Assembly (NCBI GenBank): GCA_963727825.1
Contig: CAVSHO010000008.1
Coordinates: 96,001 to 160,000 of the forward strand
DNA from: Ignavibacteriota bacterium
GTDB taxonomy: Bacteria; Bacteroidota; Ignavibacteria; UBA10030
DNA: 64,000 nucleotides
Reading direction: 5' to 3'
The translations under genes were made by a program, and so were the position numbers. The notes beneath the pieces were generated by a model, which was not told where the DNA came from, did no database searches, and was given only the letters and a program-made list of their open reading frames with translations. Below, one piece after another: positions 58,609 to 63,655 of this stretch (its first letter is position 1; each line of letters starts with the position of its first letter).

Positions 58609-58812
58609 TTAAGCAGGTTTTACAACTTTTACCGCCTGTAATCCTTTGGGGCCCTGTTCAACTTCGAACTCTACTTTATCGCCTTCGTTAAGCGTTTTGT
58701 AGCCGTCTCCATTGATGGACTTGTAATGCACGAATACGTCTTCACCGCTTTCCCGTTTGATGAAGCCATACCCTTTTGTATTATTGAACCACTTTACTGT
58801 ACCCTGTTCCAT
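58609..58812 (-). CDS. Cold-shock protein
   Basis: GTVKWFN, KGYGFI, DVFVHY, GPKGLQA. Confidence 0.96.
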
Positions 58813-59060: not shown

Positions 59061-61412
59061 TTACTCTTCATCTGACAGCCAGATATTATATTCCTCAATT
59101 TCAGATTTGGTTTCTGCTGCTTCCGGTGCAATTTTTCGAGTTAGAATATGGATGCCTTCGTCAGAAAAACCAAACATTTCATCTAAAGTGAAAATTCGTT
59201 CAAATGCCGCCGATTCAAAAAACTCTCGGAATTTGCCAGCAGCTTCGTGCAAACGAGCTAAATAATAAGCTGTATTTTCGTCCGGCTGATTAGGATTCCA
59301 TTCATCAACTAAACGAGAGGAATGAGTGAGCGTGGCACCCGAATCGTTTCCGGTAACATAATAAGAGATTTTTGAATTTGCTTTGACGAAGAGACTTGAA
59401 CGCACTACAGCTTCCATTGCTGGCGACGTGGCGATTTGGCCGGAAAGCATTTCTTTCTGGTAAGTTTCCGTGTCTATGCGGACAATATCTGTGCGGCAGA
59501 AATCTATTGGTGTCCATTTATGCTGCGTCACTTGTGTATGTGCCGTAGCATATGCATGGTGCATCCGTTTTAAGTCGTTTGTCAGTAGACATTCAATCAT
59601 CCGCTGAATAAATACTCTCAGGAAACGCTCCATCCCGCGAGAAATAAGGTTATTTCCCTTGATAAAAACATTGTTGTTCTGATCCAGTAAGGCATAATTA
59701 TTTTTTCGATAGCTAAACATTTGTTTGTAGCAGTATGATAATACAAGCTTGGTTCTTTCCGGCAAAGTATTTGATAACCGTTCAATAAAGTTCTTCTGAT
59801 TTGATTCACCGACAATATTATTTGGCGGTAGAAAAAAAAGACCATTGCCGTCAGATTGGATTATTGTTGCGTTAAAAAGTTCAATTTGGTGTAGAATTTC
59901 TTCCATAATCTGACGACTTGAGGTCAGGGCAATTTCAGCTTGTTCAGGATCGTTGAACAAGCCGCGAGCAGAACCGATGTAGAGATAAAAAGAATCAATG
60001 AGACGTTTAACTGCTTTCAACTGAGATAGCGAATCTTTGGACTCCAGTGTCTCGCTTTTCATAAGACCGGTCTTGTCTTGCTGCAAAACTGAGAGACATG
60101 TAAGAAGGTGAAGAAAAACATTTAACTCATCTGTCTTTGGCTTGATATTCTGACGTAACAATATGGAAGAATGGATCCCAGCTAATTCAACATACATAAC
60201 ATCGGAGAAAACGCCTGTATGGAATATTTCCGAAGAGATTGTCATTGAGCGGGAATTATCGTTCGCTCTGGGGACTGAGTGTCGTTGACGAACGTATTCT
60301 CTTAACATCAGAGATTCAATTCGTGAGGCTGCGCTAAGTTGAGTTAACATTCGATAATTGAATGGACACATTTGTGCAAGATAGAACAGCGGCGGCGAGA
60401 GAGAGTCATAAAGATCGCGTGCAATGCGTACATTGCGTAGAGATTGATTTATAATATTCTCCGGCCGATGATTCCATTCCTCAAATATCCTCTGTGCAGG
60501 AATAGTTTTCTCTGTGCCGATTGTAATACCAAAATGTTTTGCCAATGAAGTGAGCGTAAACGACTGTTCAATTCTTTTAGCATCAATTTCCGATTCTGCC
60601 AATGTTAGAAGATCAACCAAATGCCTGCCGAAAACATCAAAAGAGAACCATTCACTTTCTCCTGCATTGGTGGCACTATATCCAGTCGGTGTTCGCATGT
60701 CACTGCCATCTCTACCTATCGCTAGCGGGATTTGTGAACGTTCGCAGGCGCGGTTGAGTGCTGGTAAAATTGTTCCAAACAAATCATATCCGTCTATGAC
60801 ATCGGGGTTAATCGTGTTGATGTGTTGTATACAACGTTCTAACACATTTCGTTCATCGTGCTTTTGAGTGCTGAATGTATATTCGCTTCCATCGCTTGCA
60901 GCGAGAGTGATAACAAGAATTTTTTCTCCAGAAATTTTCCTGTTCCGTTTTTTCCCGGCTGCGGTTGCGAATTGAATGTCCACATGAAGCCGCACGAGTT
61001 CTTCGAACTTCATTCCTTTGAATAATGTGATACCGGATTGCAGAAGGAACTGGCGCACTGCGTCTGCGCGAACAAGAATTTCTCTAAATTCCTGATAAGA
61101 TAAAATGCGCGGCGAATGGTCTTTGTTGTATTGACGCAGAATGAAATGTACCGCTTCCCACATCTCGCTCCAGCGCGTGAAAGCAGCTATATAACGATAG
61201 TAGTTCCTGCCGGCAAGCTTTTTCAACCAGAATTTTTTTGGGAAATCTTTGATAAGTGCTTCATCGGAAAGAAAAAAGAAAGGGAAGAATTCCACATCCT
61301 GATGCAGAACCTTCCCCTCAACTCGTTTGTATAGTCTGATTGTCTGATCGTTCAGCTGTTGGACAGCGACGATGCGCTCTTCGGTATTATATCCATAGAG
61401 CAGATTGTCCAT
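59061..61412 (-). CDS. Family B DNA polymerase homologue, predicted catalytically inactive
   Basis: PolB layout (Exo DIQ, INPDVIDGYD, GRHLVD; motif B KRLIDSFYLYIG; KNNYAL..IKG..RG) with motif A as ELAGIHSS and motif C as SDGNG. Confidence 0.8.
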   Translation of the reverse strand: MDNLLYGYNTEERIVAVQQLNDQTIRLYKRVEGKVLHQDVEFFPFFFLSDEALIKDFPKKFWLKKLAGRNYYRYIAAFTRWSEMWEAVHFILRQYNKDHSPRILSYQEFREILVRADAVRQFLLQSGITLFKGMKFEELVRLHVDIQFATAAGKKRNRKISGEKILVITLAASDGSEYTFSTQKHDERNVLERCIQHINTINPDVIDGYDLFGTILPALNRACERSQIPLAIGRDGSDMRTPTGYSATNAGESEWFSFDVFGRHLVDLLTLAESEIDAKRIEQSFTLTSLAKHFGITIGTEKTIPAQRIFEEWNHRPENIINQSLRNVRIARDLYDSLSPPLFYLAQMCPFNYRMLTQLSAASRIESLMLREYVRQRHSVPRANDNSRSMTISSEIFHTGVFSDVMYVELAGIHSSILLRQNIKPKTDELNVFLHLLTCLSVLQQDKTGLMKSETLESKDSLSQLKAVKRLIDSFYLYIGSARGLFNDPEQAEIALTSSRQIMEEILHQIELFNATIIQSDGNGLFFLPPNNIVGESNQKNFIERLSNTLPERTKLVLSYCYKQMFSYRKNNYALLDQNNNVFIKGNNLISRGMERFLRVFIQRMIECLLTNDLKRMHHAYATAHTQVTQHKWTPIDFCRTDIVRIDTETYQKEMLSGQIATSPAMEAVVRSSLFVKANSKISYYVTGNDSGATLTHSSRLVDEWNPNQPDENTAYYLARLHEAAGKFREFFESAAFERIFTLDEMFGFSDEGIHILTRKIAPEAAETKSEIEEYNIWLSDEE

Positions 61413-61415
61413 TCA

Positions 61416-62180
61416 TCATTTCTTGAGCTTATCTACGTTTAAAAACGGCGTCAATAAATCGATAGGCACGGGAAAGATTGTCGTGGAATTATTTTCTGTG
61501 GCGATCTCACGAAGCGTCTGCAGATAGCGTAATGTCAGTGCACTGGGTTGTTCGGCGAGCACTTTTGCTGCATCGGATAACCGCTGTGATGCCTGAAATT
61601 CTCCTTCTGCTGCGATAACTTTCGAGCGGCGTTCACGCTCTGCTTCCGCCTGTTTTGCCATTGCTCGCTGCATTTCTTGTGGTAAATCGATTTGTTTCAC
61701 TTCGACATTGGAAACCTTTACGCCCCAGGGTTCCGTATGACTGTCGATAATTTGCTGGAGTTTCTGATTAATTTTGTCACGCTGCGAAAGAAGATCGTCC
61801 AGTTCGGATTGTCCCAATACGCTTCGCAATGTGGTTTGCGAGAGCTGAGAAGTAGCAAACAAATAGTTTTCGACTGATACGATGGCCTTCTCTGGTTGCA
61901 TAACGCGGAAGTAGACGACAGCATTCACTTTTAGGGAAACGTTATCCTGTGTGATGATATCTTGCGGCGGTACATCCATCACTACAGTCCTCAGACTCAC
62001 TTTTACCATTCTTTCAATAAATGGCCACAACCAAATGAGACCAGGCCCGCGTACACCGACCATTCGTCCGAGCCGGAAAACAACACCACGCTCATACTCA
62101 CGAAGGATTTTAACCGAATTTGCAATAACAATTACTGCGAAAACAATGAGAACAAAGAATAAAACACCTGTCTGTTCCAT
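61416..62180 (-). CDS. Stomatin-like SPFH (slipin) protein
   Basis: [46 protein letters not shown]. Confidence 0.95.
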
Positions 62181-62189
62181 AAGAACTCC

Positions 62190-63479
62190 TTATGTTGATG
62201 ACTTGACTTGTTCAACCCTGAGTTTCAGGTTTTGAATTTCTACGACACGAACACGCTCACCTTTAGCTATTTTACCGCTTGTAGATTCTGCATCCCAGAG
62301 TTCACCCTGCACGCGGATGGTGCCTTCCGGATTAAGCAAAGAAAGTGTTTCACCAATTTCACCAATTATTCCTTCTTTTCCGGTAGTTGGTTTATTCCGC
62401 TGCACTTTTAGGCCTAATCCCAGCAAGAAGACAAAAAAGAATGTCGTGATGGCCACGCTGGCTACAATAACGACCCATGAGATTTCAACAAATTCAAGAA
62501 CACTTGATGTACGAATGAGCATAATAGACCCCAAAAAAAGTGAAACAGCGCCGCCTATAGCGAGCATACCATGGCTTACGATTTTTATTTCGAGCAGAAA
62601 GAGGATGATACCAAAAATTATTAGTGCAAGTCCGGCGTAGTTAATTGGCAAAGTATGCATTGTATAGAATGCGAGCACCAAACTAATAACGCCAACAATG
62701 CCGGGGAAAATAGAACCCGGATTGTACAATTCGAACATCAATCCATAAACGCCGAGCATAAATAAAATATAGGCGATGTTTGGGTCACTGAGAATGTCGA
62801 GCATTTTTTCCGCCCATCCCATTTCCATGGGTTCAATCCGCGCACCTTTGGTATGTAATGTCACAATTCCACCTACTGTTTCGACTTTTTTACCGTCAAT
62901 CTGAAAGAGCAGATCATCGAGATTCTTCGCAATGAGATCGATAACATTTGTGTCAAGTGCTTCGGTTTCGGTAATAGCTTGACTTTTACGGACAGCATCT
63001 TCTGCCCATTTCAGGTTGCGGTTTCGTTTTTCGGCGATCGTGCGGATGAATGCAGCCGCATCATTTGTGACCTTTTCAGCCATTACCGAATCCATTTTAC
63101 CCTGCATATCTACCGGATGAGCAGCTCCGATATTTGTTCCTGGTGCCATCGCGGCAATGTGCGCTGCCATAGTGACAAACACTCCTGCAGAACCCGCATG
63201 TGCACCACTAGGAGCAACATAGACAACGATTGGAATTTTTGAATCTAGGATAGCGCTTACTATATTTCTGGTAGATTCAAGCAATCCGCCTGGTGTATTC
63301 ATTTCTATGATGAGACATTCAGCGTTTTTATCTGCGGCGCTTTCGATGCCGCGCTCGATAAATGCGGCCGACGCTGGATTGATTGCCCCATCGATTTTCA
63401 GCAAAATAACACTTTGCGAAAAAATGATAGTGGGGAGGATAATAATGAAAACTATAGGAATAAATAAACGGTGGAACAT
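62190..63479 (-). CDS. nfeD: NfeD long-form membrane serine protease (stomatin partner)
   Basis: NTPGG, AGSAG, PGTNIGAAHPV, TM region with ELYNPG, C-terminal OB fold GELW; ATG 63479 after GGAGG. Confidence 0.93.
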   Translation of the reverse strand: MFHRLFIPIVFIIILPTIIFSQSVILLKIDGAINPASAAFIERGIESAADKNAECLIIEMNTPGGLLESTRNIVSAILDSKIPIVVYVAPSGAHAGSAGVFVTMAAHIAAMAPGTNIGAAHPVDMQGKMDSVMAEKVTNDAAAFIRTIAEKRNRNLKWAEDAVRKSQAITETEALDTNVIDLIAKNLDDLLFQIDGKKVETVGGIVTLHTKGARIEPMEMGWAEKMLDILSDPNIAYILFMLGVYGLMFELYNPGSIFPGIVGVISLVLAFYTMHTLPINYAGLALIIFGIILFLLEIKIVSHGMLAIGGAVSLFLGSIMLIRTSSVLEFVEISWVVIVASVAITTFFFVFLLGLGLKVQRNKPTTGKEGIIGEIGETLSLLNPEGTIRVQGELWDAESTSGKIAKGERVRVVEIQNLKLRVEQVKSST

Positions 63480-63583
63480 TTTAATATTCCTCCATCCGGT
63501 GCAGGTGTTAGTTGGACTTGCTTTTTTCGATGAAAAAGAAATAATACCGCTGCCGGAATAAATTACTACAATAGCGACATCAG

Positions 63584-63655
63584 TGCGGAGAGAGTGGGAT
63601 TCTCCCAAAGGGATTCCTCAAGAAACTGAAAGTTTCTTGAGGAAGAACCCACGGT
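63584..63655 (-). repeat. Duplicate of the tRNA-Ser 3' end (30 nt) split by a 42-nt palindromic insert
   Basis: Plus-strand TGCGGAGAGAGTGGGATTC (63584-63602) and GAACCCACGGT (63645-63655) together match 63903-63932 exactly. Confidence 0.9.

Follow-up and report, generated by a model that had tools for sequence, protein, structure and literature searches.

Among the family-B DNA polymerases (PolB) of bacteria, the G3 group is second in size; it has had no experimental characterisation, and publications present it as a high-fidelity enzyme whose sites are intact. The surveys that defined and re-examined the group (PMC7544198; PMC12926913, 2026) describe its exonuclease and polymerase sites as conserved in the sections given to G3, and the earlier of them (Kazlauskas et al. 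2020, PMC7544198) relates the group, an EpsilonN-like clade, to Pol epsilon's active half and gives as its signature a Glu before the DTD of motif C. The genome table of the 2026 survey, in the available part of that source (PMC12926913), includes two Ignavibacteria species only. Here we describe a gene of this kind from an Ignavibacteriota bacterium, encoded in a window of 64,000 nucleotides (assembly GCA_963727825.1, contig CAVSHO010000008.1, positions 96,001 to 160,000), which is the whole stretch of DNA analysed and to which all unqualified coordinates refer. Its product of 783 amino acids (aa), P0001, has the length, domain order and locus of a bacterial G3 polymerase, and its relatives at 36–45% identity carry EVDTDG. 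The difference is that G3 is described with conserved exonuclease and polymerase sites, whereas both are degenerate here, and the signature Glu is replaced by Gln (IIQSDGNG, against IEVDTDG in relatives). Full-text literature searches, and the G3 sections of the two surveys, contained no report of inactivated bacterial G3 polymerases; within that scope, the statement in the preliminary description of this DNA that nothing of the sort was known from this lineage holds.

A pseudo-polymerase is, as a kind, already known; what is new is the existence of inactivated G3 forms. The inactivated PolBs named in the literature, in the parts consulted, are archaeal PolB2, the C-terminal half of Pol epsilon, poxvirus F12 and Polinton fusions. 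PolB2 and bacterial G2 (the Dpo2-type translesion polymerase) share with P0001 a dead exonuclease and a non-canonical motif C, and were once called 'inactivated', the label under which the preliminary description drew the comparison. That comparison is dated, since excerpts of later work report PolB2 to be active in translesion synthesis; furthermore, the two residues that PolB2 retains, the Asp of motif A and the second Asp of motif C, are exactly those lost by the window protein, and in this genome PolB2 is a separate, more conserved gene on another contig. The C-terminal module of Pol epsilon is likewise a full PolB fold with both sites inactive that has been retained for a structural role, the inactive half being essential in yeast and binding CMG according to the section of PMC7544198 that deals with it, but it is eukaryotic, is fused to an active module and has Zn-finger C-terminal domains, whereas the window protein stands alone. 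ImuB and the inactive Y-family polymerases (iPolY), the latter with clamp and RecA-NT motifs in the portion of PMC12926913 that treats them, may be a parallel in that a dead polymerase homologue acts as a clamp- and partner-binding adaptor; they differ in having the Y fold rather than the B fold and ImuA/DnaE2 or RecA as partners, and there are no such neighbours at the window locus. Chordopoxvirus F12 and the helicase-fused PolBs of Polintons are, in the accounts seen, family-B polymerases exapted after catalysis was lost, but these viral proteins have diverged strongly or become fused, and are not orthologous replacements of a cellular enzyme.

The unbroken 783-codon frame runs at 59061–61412 on the minus strand (the strand had previously been left unstated), from an ATG start and with zero stops, while the plus strand across the same interval has many; its G+C content is 0.417, against 0.415 for the window. 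The five motif strings quoted in the preliminary description for the ExoI, ExoII, ExoIII, A and C motifs are all present (Table 1), and lie opposite DIE, GHN(I/L)xxFD, YALDD, DVESLYPS and VDTDG in canonical relatives of 36–45% identity. Because this is an alignment within the family rather than a manual guess, the assignment of the motifs is unambiguous, and the earlier claim that both active sites are degenerate is upheld. Three of the four exonuclease carboxylates are gone (E147Q, D215I and D327N), D145 being retained, and the polymerase site carries D409E, T522G and D523N; the Asp of motif A and the second Asp of motif C are those which, from the RB69 and phi29 literature, we take to be metal ligands. 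On the side of the deoxynucleoside triphosphate (dNTP), the fingers carry R444Q and K448T and the palm K571N. Motif B is recognisable, as the preliminary description had it, but it is not intact, with N473D and G477L relative to the relatives and, in most members of the clade, Y476H. P0001 lacks the set of features that marks a family-B enzyme: DxE in ExoI, NxxxFD in ExoII, YxxxD in ExoIII, the motif A Asp with the Asp pair of DTD in motif C, and KxxxNSxYG in motif B.

By sequence and by predicted structure alike, the family-B homology of P0001 is certain, far beyond chance. A phmmer search of PDB sequences found archaeal PolB in two stretches (E ∼2e-17), with motifs A and C aligned as first supposed. 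The AlphaFold2 (AF2) model, built from a 50-sequence alignment (A1), has a mean predicted local distance difference test (pLDDT) score of 85.5 and a predicted template-modelling (pTM) score of 0.80, and Foldseek aligns ∼790 columns of it to archaeal PolB structures (best E 6.5e-38) with a template-modelling score of up to 0.75 (P. abyssi PolB, editing mode). P0001 has the five-domain family-B layout of N-terminal, exonuclease, palm, fingers and thumb domains over ∼780 aa. Pfam assigns no family to it, PF00136 and PF03104 both falling below the gathering threshold, while an intact orthologue passes both; the missing match is in keeping with loss of the motifs, and NCBIfam gives only partial matches to Pol II models, far below threshold. 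A search of 5.8 billion proteins returned 205 matches to P0001, from sources named as Ignavibacteriae, Ignavibacteriales and Bacteroidota metagenome-assembled genomes. The degenerate motifs are common to the relatives that are 54–89% identical (P0002–P0057), whereas relatives at 36–45% identity mostly read DVESLYPS, KILINSFYGYLGY and (I/V)EVDTDG, some carrying LDIET, GHNIxxFDLP and YALDD in addition. Placement in G3 is given by EVDTDG in the best homologues outside the clade, the shared locus and the single copy per genome; the signature Glu and the intact exonuclease and polymerase sites of G3 are absent from the window protein itself.

The degeneration is a property of a clade rather than of one sequence. 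Frames without stops, of 779–797 aa and 54–89% identity, are found in 11/11 genomes of the genus (780–783 aa), in the sister genus and in 50 metagenomic clade members. When 50 clade members of full length are set against 56 relatives whose polymerase site is intact, 100 of the 152 positions conserved at ≥93% in the intact set are kept in the dead clade, and the 52 changed positions concentrate at 386–415 (motif A), R444/K448, N473/Y476/G477, T522/D523 and K571. At the position of the motif A Asp, 45 of the 50 have Glu, three Lys, one Thr and one Asp; R444, K448, N473, Y476 and K571 have been replaced. In motif C the first Asp (521) is retained in 47/50 and the second (523) in 17/50, the variants at the latter being N, E, Q, R, H, G and V. 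According to Kazlauskas et al. (2020, PMC7544198), it is the first Asp of motif C that is missing from active primer-independent PolBs; what has been lost here is therefore the very Asp that such active enzymes keep. Other residues have become fixed in the clade: E409 (90%), D473 (82%), H476 (90%), P393 (94%), E395 (96%) and N587 (100%).

The dead gene is maintained by purifying selection. In 16 within-genus pairs with unsaturated synonymous divergence (dS 0.13–1.14), the ratio of nonsynonymous to synonymous divergence (dN/dS, by Nei-Gojobori) is 0.110–0.182, and in each of five bootstrapped pairs the 95% interval ends below 0.35, with 0.42 as the largest single bootstrap value. The preliminary description was thus right to call the gene selected; neutral decay is not seen. 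Mean dN/dS per domain is 0.078 for the N-terminal domain, 0.166 for the exonuclease, 0.156 for the palm and fingers, 0.132 for the thumb and 0.163 for the C-terminal tail. Across the order, using same-genus, same-state pairs with dS of 0.1–1.5, the median is 0.133 (range 0.11–0.195) in 19 pairs of dead forms from four genera, 0.093 in five pairs that are dead in the exonuclease only, and 0.076 (range 0.036–0.176) in 22 pairs of fully intact forms. Constraint on the dead forms is therefore relaxed ∼1.8-fold, yet far from neutral.

The gene is a vertically inherited, single-copy positional orthologue of bacterial G3 PolB, in the order NfeD-SPFH-PolB-Csp (Csp, cold-shock protein). A search of the order with P0001 gave a match in 177/201 genomes, exactly one in most. 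Matches of 59–86% identity are confined to the window's own genus (10/10 other genomes; 780–783 aa, no stops), the sister genus (G207) has a dead form of 782 aa that is 55% identical, and the other genera of the family match at 33–45%. In a maximum-likelihood tree of 29 genome-derived proteins the genus is recovered as a clade with 100/100 support, and no inner branch is longer than the one that leads to it (0.65). The gene sits behind NfeD and SPFH in 30/30 of the first loci, most of which have the cold-shock gene and a convergent Maf gene downstream.

Within the order, loss of the sites has recurred. Our survey took in 157 G3 loci, 155 of them from the 177 genomes with a match and two from additional members of the family, the 22 lowest-scoring genomes lying outside it, with state scored on the alignment columns D409/D521/D523 for the polymerase and D145/E147/D215/D327 for the exonuclease. 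All motifs are present in 97 orthologues, 28 are dead in the exonuclease only and 32 are dead in both; a dead polymerase with an intact exonuclease occurs in 0/157 of these genome-encoded sequences. The 32 dead forms come from 15 genera in three families: in f1, g1 (11/11), g6 (5/5), g8, g13, g14, g18, g24 and g103; in f5, g45, g65, g70, g83 and 1/2 in g85; and in f7, g76 and 1/2 in g53. Family f8 is intact in 35/35. A non-acidic residue stands at 409 or 523 in 22/32 dead forms. A FastTree tree of the 157 requires at least six polymerase-state and eight exonuclease-state changes, and each dead genus has its highest similarity to sequences of its own family; this points to repeated losses of catalysis in situ, with proofreading apparently lost before polymerisation. 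A mixed gene tree does cluster the dead forms, but this may be long-branch attraction and was not taken as a sign of a single origin, against which their identity to their own families argues. Degeneration has gone furthest to the eye in g6 (G156, G092, G038, G120 and G112), in which motifs A, B and C are unrecognisable while the frames stay open at 761–828 aa; these orthologues are 28–36% identical to an intact one, with dS too saturated for dN/dS.

To see which parts of the protein outlast its active sites, we took one sequence per genus (15 dead and 46 intact) and asked which positions conserved at ≥90% in intact genera are kept in ≥80% of dead genera. The N-terminal domain keeps 19/19, the thumb 21/26 and the C-terminal tail 3/4, against 18/67 in the exonuclease, 7/27 in the palm around motif A, 3/33 in the fingers around motif B and 10/35 in the palm around motif C. 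In family-B polymerases the N-terminal domain holds the single-stranded template and the thumb holds the duplex. Two C-terminal peptides are also common to intact and dead forms: the motif (D/E)(D/E)(L/M/I)FGF at 743–750, and IWL(D/A)E in the acidic disordered tail, the latter shared by intact and dead orthologues of the order. F747 is invariant across alignment A1, and every one of the 56 intact and 50 dead-clade sequences has F747 and F749; even in g6, a motif of the DLFGF/LFSF type is found in 5/5 and IWL in 3/5. LDEMF (743–747) resembles the QxxLF clamp-binding consensus as given in the relevant part of PMC12926913, a resemblance that serves as a lead only, and the 743–750 motif also resembles the xxSLF motifs listed for Ignavibacteria DnaE1 in that paper's supplement; the text of the surveys does not say at what position G3 proteins carry their beta-clamp-binding motif. 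Complex prediction of a beta-clamp dimer (alignment A2) with residues 725–783 scored 0.13 against a mark of 0.32, which speaks neither for nor against binding.

Our conclusion from this set of results, which we hold at a probability of about 60%, is that P0001 is a selected, non-catalytic pseudo-polymerase derived from G3 PolB that would bind DNA junctions or partners. We infer loss of activity because the metal ligands and the dNTP-binding residues have been lost jointly. In the window's genus and the sister genus, the proofreading site would have gone first and the polymerase site next, leaving a folded five-domain protein that most likely neither synthesises nor degrades DNA. Its function would run through the conserved parts, namely the N-terminal domain, the thumb and the two docking-like C-terminal peptides, one of which resembles a sliding-clamp-binding motif, and we propose that at primer ends it might serve as a placeholder, an adaptor or a sensor. 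The logic may be analogous to that of ImuB or of Pol epsilon's inactive C-terminal half. A scaffold or sensor, as suggested in the preliminary description, would accord with which domains stay conserved. If so, the concentration of constraint in the N-terminal domain, thumb and C-terminal peptides of the dead forms suggests that in bacteria a cellular polymerase of the replicative type has a non-catalytic role that has gone unrecognised. One-fifth of the surveyed orthologues in one order are without the polymerase site, all of those are also without the proofreading site, and they are still under purifying selection; such forms are natural separation-of-function variants with which the function of G3 enzymes could be worked out, and a warning for annotation pipelines that label these genes 'DNA polymerase'.

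It is important to note that several points weigh against this conclusion. The inactivity is a prediction from sequence, and PolB2, in the literature excerpts cited above, was once predicted inactive from its motifs and was later reported to work in translesion synthesis. Triads of E-D-D, E-D-E or E-T-E, acidic at both 409 and 523, are found in 4/11 members of the genus, and 10/32 of the dead calls across the order differ by Asp/Glu swaps only and are borderline, with the 22 low-scoring genomes standing outside the classification. Within the genus, purifying selection also acts on what was once the catalytic core (dN/dS 0.13–0.19), and a constrained core with fixed E409, D473, H476, N587 and P393 fits a remodelled pocket as well as it fits a scaffold; because the old core is both constrained and marked by substitutions fixed in the clade, an altered function of the pocket stays among the readings. 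Clamp and DNA binding by the dead forms are putative, and the 743–750 motif, modelled with moderate confidence (pLDDT 74–88 at 741–760), may belong to the fold rather than to a free peptide.

There are two alternatives in which the former active site still does something. The protein might still be an enzyme, either a low-fidelity or unusual polymerase or a nucleotidyl-transferase, with Glu409 and Asp521 as ligands, joined in some species by Asp/Glu523. The prevalence of Glu for the motif A Asp and of the first motif C Asp in the clade (45/50 and 47/50), the acidic residues at both 409 and 523 in 4/11 genomes of the genus, the purifying selection on the core and the precedent of PolB2, wrongly called inactive, all lend it something. 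We consider it unlikely, given that the second motif C Asp, which PolB2-type and primer-independent enzymes keep, varies freely within the clade and is Asn in the window protein, that the dNTP-binding R444, K448, N473, Y476 and K571 have been lost together, that only 3/33 positions of the fingers are kept across dead genera, and that g6 retains the gene with no recognisable motif A, B or C. Alternatively, the site could have been remodelled into a ligand or metal pocket, used for sensing nucleotides or small molecules or for new catalysis. E409, D473, H476, P393, E395 and N587 are indeed fixed in the clade in or near the pocket, and dN/dS in the core is 0.13–0.19 rather than near 1. These residues are, however, specific to the clade, and the dead genera g6, g8, g13, g14 and g18 and those of f5 carry unrelated sequence at the same positions; there is therefore no new pocket common to the dead lineages, and we regard this explanation as quite improbable.

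The remaining alternatives locate the reason for retention elsewhere. The protein could work with the NfeD-SPFH membrane pair encoded upstream, for instance in membrane microdomains, so that this partnership and not any DNA transaction is what has been selected. Only 3 nucleotides separate the SPFH stop from the ATG of the polymerase-like gene, with no terminator-like site between them, and SPFH lies upstream in 113/152 loci with room to see it (30/32 dead, 26/28 exonuclease-dead and 57/92 intact). Yet intact enzymes show this adjacency just as much, and most of family f7, where an intact G3 is retained, lacks it, so it is not tied to the dead state, and a tie of SPFH-NfeD to that state was rejected as a candidate; moreover, we know of no link between SPFH or NfeD and polymerases. 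We think this explanation very unlikely. To a pseudogene in slow neutral decay, still open by chance, we give almost no credence: the failure of Pfam models to recognise P0001, the long stem branch and a dN/dS ∼1.8-fold that of intact orthologues are what it would predict, but it is already refuted by dN/dS values of 0.11–0.19 with a highest bootstrap value of 0.42 and by the stop-free frames of 779–797 aa in 11/11 genus genomes, the sister genus and 50 metagenomic members, and the confident AF2 model speaks against it as well. More tentatively, it is possible that several of these strands belong together. The G3 protein of this order may have a second, non-catalytic function, carried by the N-terminal domain, thumb and C-terminal docking peptides, which is chiefly what selection preserves; catalysis would then have been shed stepwise at least six times, proofreading first, giving a radiation of pseudo-polymerases, and the Glu/Asp/His set of the window's clade may bind metal or nucleotide as a sensor.

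Table 1. Features of the polymerase-like gene and its neighbours (window coordinates)
Feature	Residues	Coordinates	Strand	Remarks
Whole open reading frame, homologue of family-B (G3-group) DNA polymerase, both sites degenerate		59061..61412	-	783 aa, P0001
N-terminal domain, best-conserved part	1-135	61008..61412	-	19/19 positions kept; mean dN/dS 0.078
Former 3'-5' exonuclease domain	136-345	60378..61007	-	
Former palm and fingers	346-610	59583..60377	-	
Thumb domain	611-735	59208..59582	-	21/26 positions kept in dead forms
ExoI, DIQ	145-147	60972-60980	-	
ExoII, GYDLFGTI	208-215	60768-60791	-	
ExoIII, QSLRN	323-327	60432-60446	-	
Motif A, ELAGIHSS	409-416	60165-60188	-	
Motif B, KRLIDSFYLYIG	469-480	59973-60008	-	
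Motif C, SDGNG	520-524	59841-59855	-	
C-terminal motif, LDEMFGFS	743-750	59163..59186	-	Intact relatives: DDLFGFS
IWL motif in acidic disordered C-terminal tail	777-779	59076..59084	-	pLDDT ∼31
SPFH/Band-7 (stomatin-like) gene, directly upstream		61416..62180	-	
NfeD membrane protease gene, first of NfeD-SPFH-PolB block		62190..63608	-	
Cold-shock protein gene (Csp), downstream		58609..58812	-	67 aa; PF00313, E 6e-30; syntenic in family

The preliminary description also suggested that the protein is the partner of an active paralogue, and this did not hold up. Searches of the genome with PF00136 and with P0001, the latter giving one match, turned up no active G3 paralogue. The second family-B gene, at ∼28480–30798 of contig C1 and the sole match of PF00136 in the genome, is of the PolB2/G2 type (772 aa), with motif A DFASMYPS, motif C HGIIDC containing a single Asp, and no exonuclease motifs. 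Its matches to intact G3 genes elsewhere in the order are local ones of 23–31% identity, and within the genus it is 83–92% identical, against 59–86% for the G3 gene. The window gene, for its part, lacks the features of a PolB2/G2 mutasome polymerase, which are a motif C with the second Asp only, no ExoIII, nesting with archaeal B2, and iRadA and PPB2 partners; its neighbours are NfeD, SPFH and Csp. PolB2 is present in 45/60 genomes of the family and 167/201 of the order. We rejected PolB2 as a replacement for G3 catalysis, since it occurs in 43/44 genomes of f8 even though G3 is intact in 35/35 of that family; PolB2 is present whatever the state of G3, and there is therefore no association between the two. 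Upstream of PolB2 lie a gene for a 269-aa protein without a Pfam match (an iRadA candidate, unverified) and one for a DUF559 protein. The PolB2 matches in G021, G018, G151 and G099 contain in-frame stops (2 TAA, 1 TGA, 1 TAA and 1 TAA), and may be broken genes or assembly errors.

At the window locus, a TGA ending SPFH is followed by a second in-frame TGA, which forms the 3-nucleotide spacer before the ATG (61413–61418, minus strand); the double TGA and short spacer suggest translational coupling. Scans for promoters and terminators gave counts no higher than in shuffled sequence. Contigs from a metatranscriptome run are 87–89% identical to 59065–59495, 60045–60480, 60623–60835 and 61002–61424; they derive from a relative, assembled RNA-library sequence is no proof that a gene is transcribed, and they were not used as evidence of transcription. 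The Csp gene is 82–98% identical across the family, and is far more conserved than the polymerase-like gene. In 24/201 genomes of the order, including 4/4 of family f6, P0001 has no G3 match; depending on lineage, therefore, the gene is intact, dead but retained, or not found.

A search of 1.84 billion cluster representatives gave 1232 matches at E ≤1e-3, and 115 sequences of 650–900 aa were aligned, namely 113 of the 150 top matches together with the query and an intact reference. Of these aligned representatives 31/115 are polymerase-dead, a proportion that is not to be read as a frequency because cluster counts over-represent fast-evolving forms. Three of the 31 (P0133, P0141 and P0198) retain all four exonuclease carboxylates. 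A role in anti-phage defence was considered and rejected, the lone PADLOC hit being to a 'homing endonuclease' model that overlaps the polymerase region (E 1.4e-10) and was probably built on a G3 protein of the intein or fusion type. Many G3-like representatives are 1000–2057 aa long and match in two stretches (P0146, P0150, P0164, P0194, P0197, P0210, P0259 and others), which suggests that inteins or fusions may interrupt the polymerase.

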